Below, piece after piece: positions 5,435 through 31,204 of a stretch of DNA of 64,000 bases. The notes under the pieces are model-generated. The model was not told the origin of the DNA and searched no databases. It saw nothing but the letters and a program-made list of their open reading frames with translations. The translations under genes and the position numbers were made by a program. This DNA is from a virus: positions 32,001-96,000 of IMG/VR virus record IMGVR_UViG_3300046779_000879; one strand, written 5' to 3'. Numbering within the stretch: the stretch's first letter is position 1; every line of letters begins with the position of its first letter.

Positions 5435-5589
5435 CTTCCCTCAACTTTAAAACTCTCAAATTTTAACCAATAAGTCATAGATTGTAATGCACTCTCACAT
5501 TGTTGTTGAGTCTGAAATTGTATCGTTACTCTTCCTGGAATGTCGTTTGGATTGTTTATGTGCACTGCTATCAATAGCATCAGCCACAT
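5416..5589 (-). CDS. 57-aa protein overlapping the metallophosphoesterase 3' end
   Basis: AAGGAG RBS; MWLMLLIAV...C...C; stop lies inside the GT4 start region. Confidence 0.55.
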   Translation of the reverse strand: MWLMLLIAVHINNPNDIPGRVTIQFQTQQQCESALQSMTYWLKFESFKVEGRCQKQF

Positions 5590-6340
5590 CGTCGTTCTCC
5601 TTGGTCCATGTTACTATTTCCCAGCGACCATCATGATGTTCTACAAGTGCAGTCATTGATTCTACCCAGTCGCCATCGTTCATATACATAACACCATCGA
5701 TTTCTTTTATCTCTGCATGATGTATGTGTCCACAAATGACTCCATCATACCCACGCTTTTTACAATATGATGCTAGATTCTTTTCGAACTGAAACATAAA
5801 GTCAGACGCTTTCTTTACTTTATGTTTTAAATACTTACTAAGTGACCAGTATCCAAAACCCAGCTTATGACGAACCCAATTAAAACGAGAGTTCCAGTCA
5901 AGAACTAGATCGTATAACTTATCACCGAGAAATGCCAACCATGGAGCAAGACGAGTGATTCCATCGAACAGATCTCCATGAGTAACTAGGTAATGTTTAC
6001 CGTCCACACCCACATGCTCTGTTTGATTATGAATCTCAACCAACCCAAAGGAAAATCCATAAGGAATCATTGGTCTTAAAAACTCATCATGATTACCAGC
6101 CACGTAAATCACTCTCGTCCCACGTTTTGCATGTCCAAGCACACGACGAACTACATTGGTATGACTCTGTTTCCATCGCCACTTGTTTTGTTTAATTTTC
6201 CAAGCATCAATTATATCACCAACCATGTAGAGTGTCTCACATGTGTTGTGCTTTAGAAAGTTATTCAGCTGTTCTGCCTTGCAATCACGAGTGCCAAGAT
6301 GAACATCTGAAATAAAAATAGTGCGGTATGTTTTGACCAT
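5495..6340 (-). CDS. plcP: metallophosphoesterase of the PlcP/LpxH2 family (putative phospholipase C)
   Basis: ISDVHLG, VGDIID, GNHD, HGD, CGHIH, NDGDWVES; adjacent to a GT4 gene as in bacterial plcP-agt loci. Confidence 0.8.
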   Translation of the reverse strand: MVKTYRTIFISDVHLGTRDCKAEQLNNFLKHNTCETLYMVGDIIDAWKIKQNKWRWKQSHTNVVRRVLGHAKRGTRVIYVAGNHDEFLRPMIPYGFSFGLVEIHNQTEHVGVDGKHYLVTHGDLFDGITRLAPWLAFLGDKLYDLVLDWNSRFNWVRHKLGFGYWSLSKYLKHKVKKASDFMFQFEKNLASYCKKRGYDGVICGHIHHAEIKEIDGVMYMNDGDWVESMTALVEHHDGRWEIVTWTKENDDVADAIDSSAHKQSKRHSRKSNDTISDSTTM

Positions 6341-11860: not shown

Positions 11861-12682
11861 CTATATCAATTTTTTTTCTATTAAATACTTTTCAAAATCC
11901 CATTCAAAAAGATCGGTTACGCATAACATTGGGTTTGCAGAAGCTATTATTGGTAACTTTTTATTAAACCAATCTTCTATATGAAAATGAGATCCACGAT
12001 TTTTCTTAGGAAATACTGTATCAGGAAAACAATCTTTGTAAATTTTATCTCTTATGTCAAATCCCTTTTCTTTAGTAGTCTTAAACTCTTTTAAGAAAAT
12101 TGGATGTCGGACATAAGATAATAGTATTCTGTCTGTTGTAAAGTTAAACCATTTTTCTGAATTGTTTCTAATAAGTTCTCGACACTGCCAAGTTATAGGC
12201 ATTTTACCATTAATAACTTTATATTCTGAACATGCACCAGATAAGAATATTCCTTGAAATCCTTTGTCTTGTTGAAGTTTCATCATATATTCCATCATAT
12301 ACAGATTAAAAACCCTATGAACTACCCTATTAGTTTGTGATCTATGCATCACAAACTCGGAAAATAATCTTTCATCTAAGTAAATCGGCTCATGATTTAT
12401 TTTCCATTGTCTACAAAAAGAAGTGCTTACTAAACTATCGTAATCACTAAGATCTTTTTTATGAACATAGGTACAAGCAGTGAATGGAATACCAAGTTCA
12501 ATTAAACATCTTGCTATAAATCTACTGTCACAGCCACCACTAAGAATTAGTTTTACATCTTTATTTTTACATATTTGTTCAAAGTGATCTAATACTTCTT
12601 CTTTGAATGATTTTAAAGTAGATTCAACTGAGAAATCTATTTCTACATCACACTTGTTTATATGTATAAAATTATACTTCAT
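11861..12682 (-). CDS. asparagine-synthase-like N-type ATP pyrophosphatase
   Basis: PP-loop LILSGGCDS. Confidence 0.6.
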   Translation of the reverse strand: MKYNFIHINKCDVEIDFSVESTLKSFKEEVLDHFEQICKNKDVKLILSGGCDSRFIARCLIELGIPFTACTYVHKKDLSDYDSLVSTSFCRQWKINHEPIYLDERLFSEFVMHRSQTNRVVHRVFNLYMMEYMMKLQQDKGFQGIFLSGACSEYKVINGKMPITWQCRELIRNNSEKWFNFTTDRILLSYVRHPIFLKEFKTTKEKGFDIRDKIYKDCFPDTVFPKKNRGSHFHIEDWFNKKLPIIASANPMLCVTDLFEWDFEKYLIEKKLI

Positions 12683-12685
12683 GTA

Positions 12686-13258
12686 TTATTTTTTAAATTT
12701 TAGTACAGTGTTAAAAGCAATTGAAATTCTATCTTCACTTGATTCATTAGAAATTACGCTATGTGGTAACCAAGAAGGAAACAACACTAATTGTCCTGTG
12801 CTTGGTTTAATCCGAATCACTGTAGAGTTGTACGAATTATATTCTTTAATCATGTTAGGAAAAATGACAAATGCAGCAACTGGATTTGGATTACTAAACT
12901 CCAACGCTGACGCATCTTTCCCTGCCTTAACATAATACACTCCTGACATTAACATCCCTGGACAATCATTATGTACATGATGTGCAACAATATATGGATT
13001 AGAATTTATATTCACCCATGCATTGTAAATTTTTTGTTCAGTGGCATCAGAAAATTGTAAATGGTCATGTAATGCATCAATTCTAGCACCAATCTCAGTG
13101 AACAATTCTTTTAATTCTGGTTCTGTTCCTTTGAAATAGGTAGTTTTATCTTTCTCTACACCTTCAGTCACTTTGTAGCAATAGTCAGCTATAGAATCAT
13201 TATCTATTTCCAATTCATCTGCTGCAAAGAAATTACTAAAAACATTTTCAATCTTCAT
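12686..13258 (-). CDS. 2OG-Fe(II) oxygenase (TIGR02466-like)
   Basis: AWVN, HVH, SGVYYV, LFPSWLPHSV, RISIAFN. Confidence 0.85.
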   Translation of the reverse strand: MKIENVFSNFFAADELEIDNDSIADYCYKVTEGVEKDKTTYFKGTEPELKELFTEIGARIDALHDHLQFSDATEQKIYNAWVNINSNPYIVAHHVHNDCPGMLMSGVYYVKAGKDASALEFSNPNPVAAFVIFPNMIKEYNSYNSTVIRIKPSTGQLVLFPSWLPHSVISNESSEDRISIAFNTVLKFKK

Positions 13259-13283
13259 AAACTCACTCTCTTTTATTTTAAAA

Positions 13284-13358
13284 TGGCTCCAAAGGTAGGG
13301 ATCGAACCTACGACCAATTGATTAACAGTCAACTGCACTACCGCTGTGCTACTTTGGA
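13284..13358 (-). tRNA. tRNA-Asn(GTT)
   Basis: cloverleaf, CCA end. Confidence 0.95.
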
Positions 13359-13366
13359 ACAAACTT

Positions 13367-13450
13367 TGGTGCGAGAGGAGAGACTCGAACTCTCACGACT
13401 CACGTCACTGGCTTCTAAGACCAGCGTGGCTACCATTACACCACTCTCGC
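13367..13450 (-). tRNA. tRNA-Leu(TAG)
   Basis: cloverleaf with long variable arm, CCA end. Confidence 0.95.
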
Positions 13451-13462
13451 ATCTACTTATCT

Positions 13463-13540
13463 TGGTCGGAGATGAAGGATTCGAACCTTCGGTCTTCTGC
13501 TCCCAAAGCAGACGGATTAACCAGACTTTCCCAATCTCCG
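13463..13540 (-). tRNA. tRNA-Pro(TGG)
   Basis: cloverleaf, CCA end. Confidence 0.95.
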
Positions 13541-13548
13541 ATAAACTT

Positions 13549-13622
13549 TGGTGCTCCCTGACAGAATCGAACTGCCATCAGAGGATTACAAATCCACTGT
13601 AATACCATTATACTAAGAGAGC
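13549..13622 (-). tRNA. tRNA-Thr(TGT)
   Basis: cloverleaf, loop TTTGTAA, CCA end. Confidence 0.9.
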
Positions 13623-13623
13623 A

Positions 13624-13697
13624 TGGTTGCGGATGCTGGAATCGAACCAACAACTGAAGCATATGAAACTTCCGAGATACCGTTTCTCTAATCCGCT
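13624..13697 (-). tRNA. tRNA-Met(CAT), initiator-like
   Basis: 1:72 mismatch, loop TTCATAT, ends CGCAACCA. Confidence 0.85.
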
Positions 13698-13703
13698 ACA
13701 ACT

Positions 13704-13778
13704 TGGCGACTCGTGGGAGGATCGAACTCCCGTGATCGGATAGACAATCCGACGTAATAACCATTATACGAACGAGCC
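13704..13778 (-). tRNA. tRNA-Asp(GTC)
   Basis: cloverleaf, GCCA end. Confidence 0.95.
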
Positions 13779-13784
13779 ATTATT

Positions 13785-14368
13785 TTAAAATGGAATGTAA
13801 TGTTCATTGTATGTTTTTTGAATACTATTTTGAACAACTGGTATTAAATCAAATGCTATAGTTATTCTTGGAAAATCTTCATCCCACTCTGAACTTTTAT
13901 GTTTGTCGCCATCAGACTTACCAAAAACTAAAAGACCATTTTTATTTTGAACATCATATTGTATATCTGGAGGAATTTTATAACTTGTATAAGAATTTCC
14001 TACATTTACACAATAATATCCATGATATGCTCTGGCACTACTTTCCCAGTGTCCATGCCAATCTATAAAACTTCCTTTTTTAAAAACATTTAACCAACAT
14101 TGAATCACATATTGTTTTTCTGGTAGTAAAGGTTTAACAACCTCTCTTATATTTTCTAACAAATCATTTGTGTGTTGAGTATGATAACTAAAAAAGTTGT
14201 ACTTGCTAAAATTTTGCGTAGTGTAAGAACCAGCTAGTGTAGATATTTCTTGTTCACCATTTTTATCTATCACATACTTCTCTAATTCTAGACAGTTTTC
14301 AAGTAGTTTTTATTATCAATTTGTATCATCTTTGAAAATAAAAAATTAGGAATTAGTTCATTTATCAT
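13785..14368 (-). pseudogene. 2OG-Fe(II) oxygenase-like gene with an apparent 1-nt frameshift near its 5' end
   Basis: CWLN, HGH, HGYYCV, H..RITIAFD; the RBS/ATG at 14368 is out of frame across an A5 run at 14307-14311. Confidence 0.6.
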
Positions 14369-14383
14369 ACATTATCCTTATTT

Positions 14384-14467
14384 TGGTGGAGAATCTTGGA
14401 GTCGAACCAAGTTTCCAGAGGACACAGATTTACAGTCTGCTGCAGTCGCCAATGCTGCTCATTCTCC
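14384..14467 (-). tRNA. tRNA-Tyr(GTA)
   Basis: cloverleaf with variable arm, CCA end. Confidence 0.95.
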
Positions 14468-14473
14468 AATACT

Positions 14474-14591
14474 ATTAGTTTAGCTGACGCACTGTTTGCT
14501 ATACCTCAACAGCTTTACTCGAGTTTACTGTTTATTGATATAGTTACGGAGAGTTGACGTTTACTCAATGGCTTACATCAGCTAAACTAAT
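14474..14591 (-). ncRNA. structured RNA between tRNA-Glu and tRNA-Tyr
   Basis: 14-bp perfect closing stem ATTAGTTTAGCTGA/TCAGCTAAACTAAT with internal hairpins. Confidence 0.6.
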
Positions 14592-14665
14592 GGTACACGA
14601 TAGGAGAATCGAACTCCTCTTCCTGCCGTGAAAGGGCAGTGTCCTAACCGATAGACGAATCGTGC
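14591..14665 (-). tRNA. tRNA-Glu(TTC)
   Basis: cloverleaf, CCA end. Confidence 0.95.
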
Positions 14666-14669
14666 ATAG

Positions 14670-14779
14670 TGGTAGTTTTTAGAGAACTACCAAACTCTGC
14701 GTACTTGCATGGGTAACTTATCCCAACTTCATGCTTTAGATTCGACTAAAGACTCATAGAAGATTTCAGAAGAACTACT
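14670..14779 (-). ncRNA. structured RNA ending in CCA
   Basis: T-loop-like hairpin CTTTAG-TCGAAT-CTAAAG, further stems, 3' AACTACCA. Confidence 0.5.
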
Positions 14780-14808
14780 ATTATACATCAAAACTTATTG
14801 CAAGACAA
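14780..14808 (-). promoter_or_regulatory. sigma70-type promoter inside the tRNA array
   Basis: TTGTCT-N17-TATAAT. Confidence 0.8.
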
Positions 14809-14816
14809 CAATTATC

Positions 14817-14893
14817 TGGAGTGGGTGACAGGGATCGAACCTGCATAATACGGATTTGCAATCCGTCACCTAACCATTCAGTAGCACACCCAC
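14817..14893 (-). tRNA. tRNA-Cys(GCA)
   Basis: cloverleaf, TCCA end. Confidence 0.95.
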
Positions 14894-14899
14894 ATAATC

Positions 14900-14974
14900 T
14901 GGCACGGCATGGAGGAATCGAACCACCATTCTGAGTTTAGAAGACTCATGTCCTATCCGTTGAACGAATGCCGT
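14900..14974 (-). tRNA. tRNA-Arg(TCT)
   Basis: cloverleaf, CCA end. Confidence 0.95.
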
Positions 14975-14979
14975 ATAAC

Positions 14980-15067
14980 TGGCGGAAGAACTGAGATTCG
15001 AACTCAGGGAACATTTCTGTTCGGCAGTTTTCAAGACTGCTGGTTTAAACCACTCACCCACTCTTCC
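14980..15067 (-). tRNA. tRNA-Ser(TGA)
   Basis: cloverleaf with long variable arm, GCCA end. Confidence 0.95.
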
Positions 15068-15073
15068 TAAACT

Positions 15074-15158
15074 TGGTGCGACTGACCAGAATCGAACTGG
15101 TATGACTTGCGTCGAGAGATTTTAAGTCTCTTGTGTCTACCTATTTCACCACAGTCGC
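15074..15158 (-). tRNA. tRNA-Leu(TAA)
   Basis: cloverleaf with long variable arm, CCA end. Confidence 0.95.
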
Positions 15159-15167
15159 AATAACTCT

Positions 15168-15196
15168 ATTATACCCCAAACGATCTTGCAAGTCAA
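15168..15196 (-). promoter_or_regulatory. sigma70-type promoter inside the tRNA array
   Basis: TTGACT-N17-TATAAT. Confidence 0.8.
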
Positions 15197-15271
15197 TGGT
15201 GTGCCAACTAAGAATTGAACTTAGACTCAACCGATTATGAGTCGGACGCTTTACCATTAAGCTATTGGCAC
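15197..15271 (-). tRNA. tRNA(CAT), Ile2 or elongator Met
   Basis: cloverleaf, loop CTCATAA, CCA end. Confidence 0.9.
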
Positions 15272-15278
15272 ATTGTTC

Positions 15279-15326
15279 TTATTGCACGTTTTCGTGAATC
15301 CACTTCCAGTATTCTTCTACTGTCAT
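15279..15326 (-). CDS. 15-aa peptide MTVEEYWKWIHENVQ
   Basis: strong GAGGAG RBS directly after the terminator. Confidence 0.45.
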   Translation of the reverse strand: MTVEEYWKWIHENVQ

Positions 15327-15339
15327 TTCTTTCTCCTCT

Positions 15340-15377
15340 AAAAACAAAAAACCCTCGGAGATTTCTCTGCGAGGGTT
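15340..15377 (-). terminator. intrinsic terminator (attenuator hairpin 3:4)
   Basis: AACCCTCG..GAGAAATCTC-CGAGGGTT followed by a U-tract. Confidence 0.85.
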
Positions 15378-15398
15378 GATGAAAAGTATAATTACCTA

Positions 15399-15491
15399 TC
15401 AGCTAACCCTCACTCCTAGATTTAGGTATGAGTGTTCCAAGCCACATAATAGTGGATTGGTTGTTCTAAGTGTAGGTATATGTTTCATCAT
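15399..15491 (-). CDS. putative attenuator leader peptide (30 aa)
   Basis: MMKHIPTLRTTNPLLCGLEHSYLNLGVRVS; its 3' end is complementary to the terminator 5' arm; CTAAATA late-type promoter 8 nt before ATG. Confidence 0.65.
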   Translation of the reverse strand: MMKHIPTLRTTNPLLCGLEHSYLNLGVRVS

Positions 15492-15514
15492 AGTAATTCT
15501 ATTTAGGATTTATT

Positions 15515-16021
15515 TTATACATTTAAAACTTTTGCAACACTGTTCATTACTGCAGCAATGCGACCAATGTCACGTAGTTGCTCAACAGTGTAACCCTCTT
15601 TCTTCAGAGTTTCGTAGTGTGCCTTCACGCAGAAGTGGCACTTACCAACGATACTTGCAGCAAGAGAGAATGCTTCAAAATTTACCTTAGTTGTTCCACC
15701 ATGAGATGCAATCGCATTCATGCGTAGTTGAGCAGGTAGACCAGCCAATGCAGGATCGTCTGCCATCTCAACATACGGATACCATACGTTGTTCTGTGCC
15801 ATAATACTTGCAGCAGTCATCGCTGCATTCGCATGAACTGGATTGTCTGCCAACATCACTGCTAGAACTTTACCGTTACCAGTTGCAGCCAATGCAGCCA
15901 CGGCACAACCCATAGCAACATCGGCATCCAATGTGCTACGCAGAAGAACAGCATCAAGATTTAACTTGGTGTCCTTTGCATATTCAGGCAACGCTTCTTT
16001 AATAGAATCGTTGAATGCCAT
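15515..16021 (-). CDS. ahpD: alkylhydroperoxidase AhpD
   Basis: LPEYAKDTKLNL, MAQNNVWY, SIVGKCHFCVKAH. Confidence 0.9.
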   Translation of the reverse strand: MAFNDSIKEALPEYAKDTKLNLDAVLLRSTLDADVAMGCAVAALAATGNGKVLAVMLADNPVHANAAMTAASIMAQNNVWYPYVEMADDPALAGLPAQLRMNAIASHGGTTKVNFEAFSLAASIVGKCHFCVKAHYETLKKEGYTVEQLRDIGRIAAVMNSVAKVLNV

Positions 16022-16563
16022 TAGAGAGTCTCCCCACCCACTGTACGATTACATGCGCACAACTCACCAGTCTGCAATGCATCTAGTACACGAAGTGTTT
16101 CTTCTGGTGAACGACCTACATTCAAGTTATTCACAGTCACGTGTTGAATCACATTTTCTGGATCAACGATGAAAGTGGCACGTAGTGCTGCACCTGCAGG
16201 TTGATAGAACACACCGAGTTGATCAATCAATGACTTATCCCACTCACGTGATGTGTCAGCAAACTGAATGTGCTTCACTTTTTGTAAGTCAGCGTGTGCT
16301 TTCTGCCATGCTACCTTACAGAACTCATTGTCTGTGCTACCAGTCAATAGAACTGCATCACGATCTTCGAAGTCTTGGAACAACTTATCATACGCTACGA
16401 TCTCTGTAGGACATACGAATGTAAAGTCTTTTGGATAGTAAACGATAACCTTCCACTTACCTTCAAATGATTTCTCTGTAATATCAAAGAATGCGTCTTC
16501 TGGTTGTCCAGGTTTTACACCAGTAACAACAAACTTCTCAATTTTATCTCCAACTGTCAACAT
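16021..16563 (-). CDS. ahpC: peroxiredoxin AhpC
   Basis: YPKDFTFVCPTE, GRSPEETLRVLDALQ, LCAC. Confidence 0.95.
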   Translation of the reverse strand: MLTVGDKIEKFVVTGVKPGQPEDAFFDITEKSFEGKWKVIVYYPKDFTFVCPTEIVAYDKLFQDFEDRDAVLLTGSTDNEFCKVAWQKAHADLQKVKHIQFADTSREWDKSLIDQLGVFYQPAGAALRATFIVDPENVIQHVTVNNLNVGRSPEETLRVLDALQTGELCACNRTVGGETL

Positions 16564-29618: not shown

Positions 29619-30782
29619 TTAGGACTTCTTTTGTTTTTGGAGTTCTTCGACTTCTTTTTCGATGGTTTTTACACCAGTTGATTGAAACACTTCGCTAACT
29701 TTATTTAAGAAAGATTGTGTTTTTGATGGATTTATCTTCTGTTCGAGTTCTTCCTCAGTCTCTGGAGTAATACGTCTTCCAGCTGAGTCATATTCTACAC
29801 GCTTTTTAACTCTATTATATAACTGAGGTTCCCAGTCCTTAGAATGCTCTTCTATTTTGATTTCTGGTAACTCTGTTTCTTCTGCTTCTTTGAAAGTTTG
29901 TTCATAGTCCATGCCATCTACTTTAGTGACAGTAACTTCCTCTTGAACGCTAACTTTATCTTCAATATCAGCACCCTCCTTTGCGAAAAAGGAATTCCAT
30001 GTAGTTGGTGGTGTATCAACTACATCTTCTTTTTCTCTACGCTTCTGCCAGTTTGCAGCAACTAACAATAAAACTGCTAAAGGATCAAATACTATAACAA
30101 TAAGAATGGTGACGATGCGAACTGCCTTCTCAAGCATATTCGTATCATTCGCACTTTCGTCACCATATATCAATGCTGCGATATATTTTATTGGTCCAAC
30201 TTCTGCTTCGACTTTACGGACTTCGCTGGCGATTGGCGCACGCTCTTCGTTGAGTTTTGCGATCTTGGCTTGCGCTGCACCGATTTCGTTGAGGATTCTG
30301 GCTCTGTCTTTTTGCTGTCCTCTACGGATGGAAATTGCTCTGTCTGTTCCACTGGCTTCTGTGGTTCGGCTGAGGGTTTGATCAACTTGAGCATCGAGTT
30401 GAGAAAGTTCTTTACGACTTGCATTGATATTTTCCTTTTCTGTTTTAATCTTCTCATCAAGTAATGCTAACTTAGACTGAACATCTCCAGTAGGAATTGC
30501 TTGATCCAAATGTGCCTTTGATAAGAATCCAAAAATGCCCATCGATGTCAACATCATTAATACAACTAGGGCGACTACAAAGTATGACTTCATCAATTTT
30601 GGAATTTCTTTCCAATTTTGATAGAGCCAAGATGCAACTACAAGTTTCGATGCCTCAAGCAACGAACCCATAAGAGCAATTGGTACTACAGCTGCAGCAA
30701 AAATTGCGACAAGACCCATCACTGCGTAATATGCAGCGAGAGCCGACAATGATAGTGCAACTGCAAAAAGTAAATATGTCAT
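29619..30782 (-). CDS. multi-TM coiled-coil membrane protein
   Basis: LEASKLV, TSMGIFGFLSKAH, EVGPIKYIA, VFDPLAV. Confidence 0.8.
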   Translation of the reverse strand: MTYLLFAVALSLSALAAYYAVMGLVAIFAAAVVPIALMGSLLEASKLVVASWLYQNWKEIPKLMKSYFVVALVVLMMLTSMGIFGFLSKAHLDQAIPTGDVQSKLALLDEKIKTEKENINASRKELSQLDAQVDQTLSRTTEASGTDRAISIRRGQQKDRARILNEIGAAQAKIAKLNEERAPIASEVRKVEAEVGPIKYIAALIYGDESANDTNMLEKAVRIVTILIVIVFDPLAVLLLVAANWQKRREKEDVVDTPPTTWNSFFAKEGADIEDKVSVQEEVTVTKVDGMDYEQTFKEAEETELPEIKIEEHSKDWEPQLYNRVKKRVEYDSAGRRITPETEEELEQKINPSKTQSFLNKVSEVFQSTGVKTIEKEVEELQKQKKS

Positions 30783-31204
30783 AGTTTGTTTTTAATATGA
30801 GAGCCATGAACACGAACAGATATCTGTCCGTTGTAGTAGTCGTCTGACTCCAACACCTTTCGTGCAAACTGTTCTCGTGCTTCTATGTAAGAACATTCAG
30901 CTTTAGATTTACAAAAGAAAAGAATCTCACGAACAAAGTTGTCTTTGCCGAAAGACTCTACATCTTTATTTAGTTCTATACTCGAACCATAGTACTCCAT
31001 CCAATCAGAGTCTATTTTGCTACGAATTCTTTTCCGTTTCTTAGTTCCGTTTTTCTGTTTCACCATTTTGTATGTAGTCTTAGAAAACTTAGACAGTTTC
31101 TTACCAATATACATACGACTGTTGGCTTTGTTCGTAATTAAATAAACAAAGCCAACACAGTCTTCAGGTAGTTCTTCAACGATTGAATTATTATAAGTCC
31201 ACAT
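30779..31204 (-). CDS. GIY-YIG (Seg-like) endonuclease
   Basis: GFVYLITN...YIGKK...YYGSS...YYN. Confidence 0.8.
   Translation of the reverse strand: MWTYNNSIVEELPEDCVGFVYLITNKANSRMYIGKKLSKFSKTTYKMVKQKNGTKKRKRIRSKIDSDWMEYYGSSIELNKDVESFGKDNFVREILFFCKSKAECSYIEAREQFARKVLESDDYYNGQISVRVHGSHIKNKL

Follow-up and report, generated by a model that had tools for sequence, protein, structure and literature searches.

What governs the entry of RNA polymerase into a phage tRNA array is the question raised by a short element located at 15506-15340 (minus strand) in a 64,000-nt stretch of DNA from a lake phage, hereafter the window, which corresponds to bases 32001-96000 of the 163.6-kb viral record IMGVR_UViG_3300046779_000879 (36.9% G+C). 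The element consists of a late-type promoter motif, a 30-codon open reading frame (ORF) that lacks a Shine-Dalgarno (SD) sequence, and an intrinsic terminator, beyond which lie a 15-codon mini-ORF and the tRNA genes. We consider it fairly probable that this element is a leaderless leader-peptide attenuator that feeds back on tRNA supply at the head of the array. The observations that bear on this reading were made in silico and concern the anatomy of the element, its conservation, the coding signature of its sister types, the alternative pairings of its RNA and the match between the leader codons and the phage tRNAs. The parts of the element, in the order of transcription, are as follows.

15506-15500, minus strand: late-type promoter motif CTAAATA, seen in the sequence; overlaps a -10-like TAGAAT at 15501-15496
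15491-15399, minus strand: leader ORF, 30 codons plus TGA (15401-15399), no SD sequence; ATG at 15491 and a second in-frame ATG at 15488
15490-15377, minus strand: long-range helices P1-P3 that close the whole leader; 15490-15466, including the start codons, pairs with 15402-15377
15443-15426, minus strand: predicted control codons 17-22 (GGC, TTG, GAA, CAC, TCA, TAC), from partition-function folding
15432-15423, minus strand: region 1, the 5' strand of the 1:2 hairpin (anti-antiterminator), present in the minimum free energy (MFE) and centroid folds
15413-15405, minus strand: region 2, in the last sense codons, 5-13 nt before the stop codon; pairs with region 1 or with the terminator 5' arm
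15377-15340, minus strand: intrinsic terminator, -15.0 kcal/mol; region 3 at 15377-15369, region 4 at 15357-15350, T tract at 15351-15340

Checks of the sequence, the ORFs and the folds place the promoter, the ORF without an SD sequence and the terminator where the initial annotation had put them. The distance between CTAAATA and the first ATG is 8 nt, so that little or no untranslated leader would precede the ORF in the transcript. In this genome, CTAAATA is 12.7-fold enriched in the 60 nt upstream of genes, and CTAAATA and ATAAATA, 12-14-fold enriched upstream of genes, are the top upstream 7-mers after the SD sequence; a promoter scan called no sigma70 promoter at 15500-15506. Six further genes of the same genome, 68-281 codons long, carry [CA]TAAATA 5-7 nt before the ATG and no SD sequence (e.g., those at 5495-6340 and 30779-31204 of the window, both on the minus strand). 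Thus, leaderless late mRNAs seem to be a regular mode of expression in this phage, and leaderless initiation would explain the lack of an SD sequence in front of the leader ORF. We infer that the late-type promoter would start the RNA at the ATG or a few bases from it, and that the 30-codon ORF would be translated as a leaderless message. The leader peptides of the element and its relatives have no match in Pfam or PHROG.

The terminator is built of an 8-bp G+C-rich stem, a C.C mismatch and a 3-bp inner stem, followed by T6-G-T5. A simple consensus terminator scan called nothing at 15377-15340, on account of the C.C mismatch inside the stem, and the call is based on the T tract and the energy of the fold. 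The element has a single close relative (locus L099, the same as L103 and L150), in which the terminator carries one substitution; it changes an A-U to a G-U and so keeps the pair. Regions 2 and 3 can form 9 bp, including one G.U, lengthened by further pairs; the energy of this duplex is -17.4 kcal/mol, compared with -9.2 +/- 2.4 in dinucleotide shuffles (P=0.008). Of all leader segments, 15414-15398, with the stop codon in it, is the best partner for the terminator 5' arm. The local energies are -10.1 kcal/mol for the 1:2 hairpin, -20.6 for the 2:3 hairpin (with region 1 masked and region 4 not yet made) and -15.0 for the 3:4 terminator. The 1:2/2:3/3:4 pairing scheme with which the element was first described is borne out by the significance of the 2:3 duplex, the presence of the 1:2 hairpin in the MFE fold and the energy of the terminator.

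To model the effect of translation, a ribosome with a 30-nt footprint was placed on the RNA and the RNA 3' of the ribosome was folded alone, using the partition function. Under these conditions, the probability of the terminator is 0.8-0.93 with the A site at codons 1-16, 0.06-0.38 at codons 17-22, and 0.93-0.94 from codon 23 to the stop codon. The predicted behaviour is that of a trp-like switch with three states, which is compatible with the trp/his-like layout claimed initially. The companion claim, that ribosome stalling allows read-through, fares less uniformly: read-through is predicted for stalls at codons 17-22 but not for stalls at any codon. The prediction leans on the usual assumption that only the RNA 3' of the ribosome takes part in folding, and on kinetics.

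The proposed mechanism would then run as follows. With no ribosome on the leader, or with a ribosome in codons 1-16, the 1:2 hairpin and the 3:4 terminator would form and transcription would stop at 15340. A ribosome held at about codons 17-22 would mask region 1, leaving region 2 to pair with the terminator 5' arm; once this antiterminator had formed, the polymerase would continue into the mini-ORF and the array, beginning with tRNA-Ile2(CAU). A ribosome that has reached the stop codon would cover region 2, and the terminator would form again. The leader consists largely of codons that the phage tRNAs decode, so slow decoding would raise the transcription of these tRNAs, that is, provide homeostatic feedback. 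That such a switch operates in vivo and that this is its signal is what we infer from the pairings and the codon content; the sensing of damage by anticodon nucleases, which had also been put forward, is speculation.

If the element is an attenuator, comparable modules can be expected in front of tRNA arrays of related phages, and the initial annotation had proposed to look for them. Two scans were run. The first used a degenerate pattern of the mini-ORF as a landmark, which yielded 24 viral loci, and a joint pattern of terminator tail, SD sequence and first mini-ORF codons, which yielded 11 viral and 32 metagenome loci representing 35 distinct units. The leaders fall into mutually unalignable types: A (19 distinct units), B (8), C (2) and D, which comprises the window and its one relative. 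The second scan used a pattern of regions 2, 3 and 4 of the kind present in the window, with neither a tRNA nor the mini-ORF specified. It returned 23 loci, of which 3 are unrelated and about 18 are new members (about 12 distinct units) that make up types E1, E2 and F. Altogether, there are seven sequence-unrelated types of leader-plus-terminator modules upstream of tRNA arrays, all in uncultured freshwater phages. The order of parts is the same in all types, namely a promoter element, an intact ORF of 30-44 codons, a terminator and tRNA genes on the same strand, often with a small nested hairpin. The promoter element is a sigma70 -10 box in some cases and the TAAATA late motif in others, and in most types it lies 6-9 nt ahead of the ATG; type A has TTGACA-17-TATAAT-7-ATG in 19 of 19 units. 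All 15 members from the second scan whose downstream sequence is 250 nt or longer are followed by a same-strand tRNA array that starts 84-354 nt past the terminator, and the members from the first scan likewise head tRNA arrays, save for one short contig.

The alternative pairing recurs across these types. In six of the seven, the stop codon lies within or just past a segment complementary to the terminator 5' arm, and the strongest partner of this arm in the leader is found at the 3' end of the ORF in types A and B (P<=0.006), D, E and F, although not in C; types A and B were not ascertained on 2:3 complementarity. The pairs beyond a shared GGGU/ACCC core are type-specific. The expectation of covarying stems thus holds between types, in the form of 2:3 complementarity at the same place made of different sequences, but hardly within them: one compensatory pair was detected, in type A (three sequences). 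The prediction that the leader would be conserved holds as well. The ORF is intact in every member, L099 included. Insertions and deletions within the ORF measure 3, 6 and 3 nt in type A and 3 and 9 nt in type B, and just outside the ORF an indel of 1 nt occurs in each. Variable sites at codon positions 1, 2 and 3 number 11, 17 and 21 in type A and 8, 8 and 17 in type B, and the ratio of nonsynonymous to synonymous changes is 1.26 and 0.61, respectively, compared with a random expectation of 3.1. Judging from these sequence comparisons, the leader ORFs of types A and B bear coding signatures. Searches aimed at the window's own type added little: an exact pattern over the 1:2 hairpin had no match, given that the sole relative differs by one base; a pattern for the second hairpin retrieved the known relatives only, plus a G+C-rich chance match, L175; and a search via the 162-aa ORF inside the array gave distant matches only.

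A palindromic motif, TGTTGTnTAAATACAACA, lies about 25 nt upstream of the -35 element in L117, L119, L122, L125, L139 and other type A loci, and recurs in type B past the mini-ORF beside a further promoter (L051 6324-6345). This palindrome may be an operator for a phage regulator.

The codon content of the leader is the property that would tie the switch to its targets. The initial annotation counted cognate codons for 13 of 14 tRNAs, GGA among them. Both ARAGORN and Rfam put the number of tRNAs in the window at 13, and the whole genome contains 13 tRNAs and one transfer-messenger RNA (tmRNA). No tRNA-Gly was found by either program in the window or in the genome, and therefore GGA is not a cognate codon. 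The broad match nevertheless stands: the leader has cognate codons for 12 of the 13 phage tRNAs, or for 11 of 12 if the two CAT tRNAs are counted once. For comparison, 30-codon windows from genes cover 7.0 +/- 1.6 tRNAs, and the null is unchanged when stop-free windows in any frame are used instead, so that the suggested enrichment over the genome background is significant (P=0.0007-0.0025). The L099 leader gains a GAT codon, which would add coverage of Asp. The window's leader contains 25 different codons among its 30 and 15 different amino acids, with no run of codons for a single amino acid. Every other type also has an excess of cognate codons (z from +1.4 to +3.4). The codons were further expected to track the tRNA set of each phage, and they do: matching each leader to its own set gives a mean F score of 0.694, above all 1854 derangements (maximum 0.672).

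These data also bear on the alternative that survives best, although we regard it as unlikely: the switch would be the same but its signal another one, such as general translation capacity, ribosome-polymerase coupling or timing, and the broad codon content a by-product. In types A, B and E2, which have no effective region 1, the terminator is predicted to form with a probability of at most 0.4 in naked RNA, which prefers the antiterminator, and of at least 0.92 once a ribosome occupies the last 6-10 codons, so that any delay of the ribosome before these codons would lead to read-through regardless of the codon. The leaders of E2 and F include 19-20 of the 20 amino acids within 32-42 codons (P=0.001-0.01), which fits a general sensor, and leaderless initiation is itself known to depend on conditions. 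However, a general signal does not account for the better fit of leaders to their own tRNA sets than to those of other phages. Nor does it account for the type C leader, in which 15 of 35 residues are Leu, Ser or Arg and which precedes an array of Ser, Arg and three Leu tRNAs. In the window's leader, the choice of codons still favours cognate ones when the peptide is fixed and synonymous codons are redrawn from the genome usage (P=0.01-0.07), and the amino-acid diversity is ordinary (15 of 30, P=0.5); such diversity is significant for types E1, E2 and F, and not significant for types B and C.

The features found behind the terminator are as follows.

15338-15333, minus strand: GAGGAG SD sequence, directly after the T tract
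15326-15279, minus strand: 15-codon mini-ORF, ending 7 nt before the first tRNA
15271-15197, minus strand: first tRNA, anticodon CAT (ARAGORN and Rfam)
15196-15168, minus strand: sigma70 promoter TTGACT-17-TATAAT, 11 of 12 matches, conserved in L099
15158-13284, minus strand: the other 12 tRNA genes, two spacers, a 162-aa ORF and the second internal promoter (ARAGORN, Rfam, ORF and promoter scans)
14808-14780, minus strand: second internal sigma70 promoter, 10 of 12 matches

The succession of terminator and tRNA genes is as first described, except that a conserved mini-ORF with a strong SD sequence between them had been missed. Because this SD sequence abuts the T tract, translation of the mini-ORF would need read-through transcripts. 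The mini-ORF was identified in 41 distinct contexts in phage contigs (L095-L153), in 40 of which it is exactly 15 codons long and in 38 of which it has an SD sequence; the consensus of 40 contexts is M-[ST]-x-EEYW-[KQR]-W-[IL]-[HRQ]-[DEN]-NVQ. It mostly heads islands of tRNA or tmRNA genes, and a few copies are coupled to ordinary genes (L097, L115). To judge by this conservation, the product looks like a functional micropeptide; the motif was not found in the literature searched.

The first tRNA is probably tRNA-Ile2. Its antisense strand resembles the family of the plastid ycf2 5' untranslated region (52.5 bits, below the gathering score), which we take to overlap trnI-CAU. Two spacers between tRNA genes have no Rfam match: one of 123 nt (14590-14468, minus strand), the ends of which are closed by a 13-nt inverted repeat, and one of 151 nt (14816-14666, minus strand), which holds a sigma70 promoter.

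Several observations weigh against an attenuator that feeds back on tRNA supply. Both internal sigma70 promoters noted initially are present, and the strong one right behind the first tRNA lets 12 of the 13 tRNAs be transcribed independently of the attenuator. Only the mini-ORF and the first tRNA thus lie exclusively behind the terminator, so that the attenuator would tune at most these two and the late-phase contribution to the other tRNAs. The phage tRNAs read only 3-4 of the six predicted control codons, and this would make coverage across the leader as a whole less important for this element than for types A, B and E2. The codon match was spotted post hoc in the window, although it is replicated in independent types. 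Type D amounts to two distinct sequences only, and the 5 substitutions between their ORFs comprise 1 synonymous and 4 nonsynonymous changes. Covariation within types is thin, being limited to the pair mentioned above, and no match in cultured phages was found for the three leader types searched. Once base pairing across the ribosome is permitted in the folding, P1-P3 stay formed and, wherever the ribosome sits, the terminator prevails (probability about 0.9). Finally, types C and E1 and one subtype of F show no switch at equilibrium.

Some of these points are shared with a second alternative, which appears less likely still, namely that the element constitutes an independent small gene, or else a stable small RNA, that has a promoter of its own and ends in a constitutive terminator, without regulated read-through, and that the tRNA genes are neighbours by chance. 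The fold of the leader is compact and closed: the MFE of the leader as a whole is -49.9 kcal/mol (z=-4.8 relative to shuffles), the MFE fold is the same as the consensus fold with L099, and 5 of the 6 substitutions in L099 fall at unpaired positions. A terminator that prevails at equilibrium regardless of the ribosome, as when the long-range pairs persist, would suit such a gene or RNA, as would the moderate purifying selection on the peptides of types A and B, and the T4 tRNA cluster is known to include stable RNAs other than tRNAs. Nevertheless, the peptides are unrelated between types whereas the layout is constant, and the ORF always ends in or just past the segment complementary to the terminator 5' arm. 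The module heads a tRNA array in all 15 independently ascertained cases, the mini-ORF, with its SD sequence against the T tract, needs read-through, and a separate gene or RNA offers no reason for the match of codons to tRNA sets.

The neighbourhood upstream of the element bears on the last alternative. The genes concerned are the following.

16563-16021, minus strand: AhpC/TSA peroxiredoxin gene, upstream neighbour
16021-15515, minus strand: AhpD-like gene of the CMD family, directly upstream of the leader element

The idea that the ORF is a chance one in the 3' untranslated region of ahpC-ahpD and the hairpin merely the terminator of that operon was already disfavoured and is highly improbable: the element does begin 9 nt past the stop codon of ahpD, and any transcript running in from that gene would contain an internal ATG without an SD sequence and would terminate here, but the cassette occurs in at least 592 viral contigs (about 90% protein identity, contig sizes 4-358 kb) with homology that ends at the ahpD stop codon, the element is absent from the best 80 of these, in L099 it is ahpC that immediately precedes the element, which starts at the same promoter motif, and the six other module types come after unrelated genes or tRNAs. 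The sequence comparison indicates that the leader element is not part of the ahpCD cassette, and since the homology of the cassette ends exactly at the gene borders in these contigs, it appears to be a widely exchanged auxiliary peroxide-defence cassette.

A leaderless attenuator at the head of a tRNA array can be compared with several known systems. Leader-peptide attenuators include trpL, hisL, leuL, thrL, pheL and the multivalent ilvGMEDA leader. As in these, the phage element has a short ORF upstream of an intrinsic terminator and mutually exclusive 1:2, 2:3 and 3:4 pairings; a ribosome at the stop codon is predicted to mask region 2 and a stall at the control codons to free it; and there is a correspondence between the control codons and what the regulated genes produce. 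Unlike in the amino-acid attenuators, the targets are tRNA genes and a micropeptide rather than biosynthetic enzymes, the leader samples many codons and has no run of one codon, initiation is apparently leaderless and from a late promoter, and several sister types lack region 1, so that their default state would be read-through. Across 12500-16500, Rfam reported only tRNA matches at E values up to 1, and no Trp, His, Leu or Thr leader or T-box; in seven related loci, no match to such a family reached the gathering score.

T-box riboswitches (RF00230) resemble the proposed system in that a leader RNA sets terminator read-through according to tRNA status. T-boxes bind uncharged tRNA through a specifier codon and the T-box motif, independently of translation, and control genes for aminoacyl-tRNA synthetases and amino-acid metabolism; in the phage element, by contrast, the conserved feature is an ORF, and no T-box was matched. 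The tRNA cluster of T4, with its stable RNAs C and D, small ORFs and several promoters, is similar in that the array described here is likewise one of a T4-like phage with extra small ORFs and several promoters. To our knowledge, no leader peptide or attenuator has been described for the T4 cluster. The comparison with cultured phages revealed no sequence similarity of the element. In general, tRNA genes are regulated through their promoters and through processing.

Leader-peptide attenuation of amino-acid operons has been modelled (PMC1183508), and the trp/his/leu/ilv logic as such is known. For the leaderless start there is a mycobacterial precedent: leaderless polycysteine short ORFs of mycobacteria are reported to serve as cysteine-responsive attenuators (bioRxiv 10.1101/834739). 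In both cases the transcript opens with a leaderless short ORF, the translation of which is reported (in mycobacteria) or predicted (in the phage) to control downstream expression. The mycobacterial ORFs are bacterial and have runs of Cys codons before Cys-related operons, whereas the phage element combines mixed codons, an intrinsic terminator and tRNA genes. The literature search found no phage tRNA attenuator, and none of the tRNA-gene target, the mixed-codon leader and the phage setting was found there.

As regards the wider genome, the phage RNase H shows 40-44% identity to the RNase H of T4-like cyanophages and Methylophilales phages. The tmRNA gene lies outside the window, at C1:20764-21177 on the minus strand, and in the related contigs L100, L101, L111 and L113 tmRNA genes adjoin the mini-ORF and tRNAs. 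These phages carry a broad set of RNAs for translation rescue and decoding.

Why and when phages carry and express tRNAs is an open and actively studied question, for which codon-usage mismatch, degradation of host tRNAs and escape from anticodon nucleases have been proposed. If the reading favoured here is correct, an attenuator that monitors the speed of decoding and adjusts tRNA transcription in response would provide direct feedback on translation capacity and would represent a new use of the trp-operon logic; the module, being short and self-contained, would also be a compact decoding-speed sensor for synthetic biology. More broadly, and as a tentative proposal, there may be a guild of uncultured freshwater T4-like phages that practise such homeostatic feedback on tRNA supply. 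Their arrays would be headed by leaderless 'test sentence' ORFs that sample the tRNAs encoded downstream, in some lineages with all 20 amino acids in 34-42 codons and in one with a leader rich in Leu, Ser and Arg before an array for Leu, Ser and Arg. Any delay in decoding would let the polymerase escape the terminator and yield more tRNA, and four lineages would also release a conserved 15-residue peptide. Feedback of this kind would explain why tRNA arrays keep small transcription units of their own.

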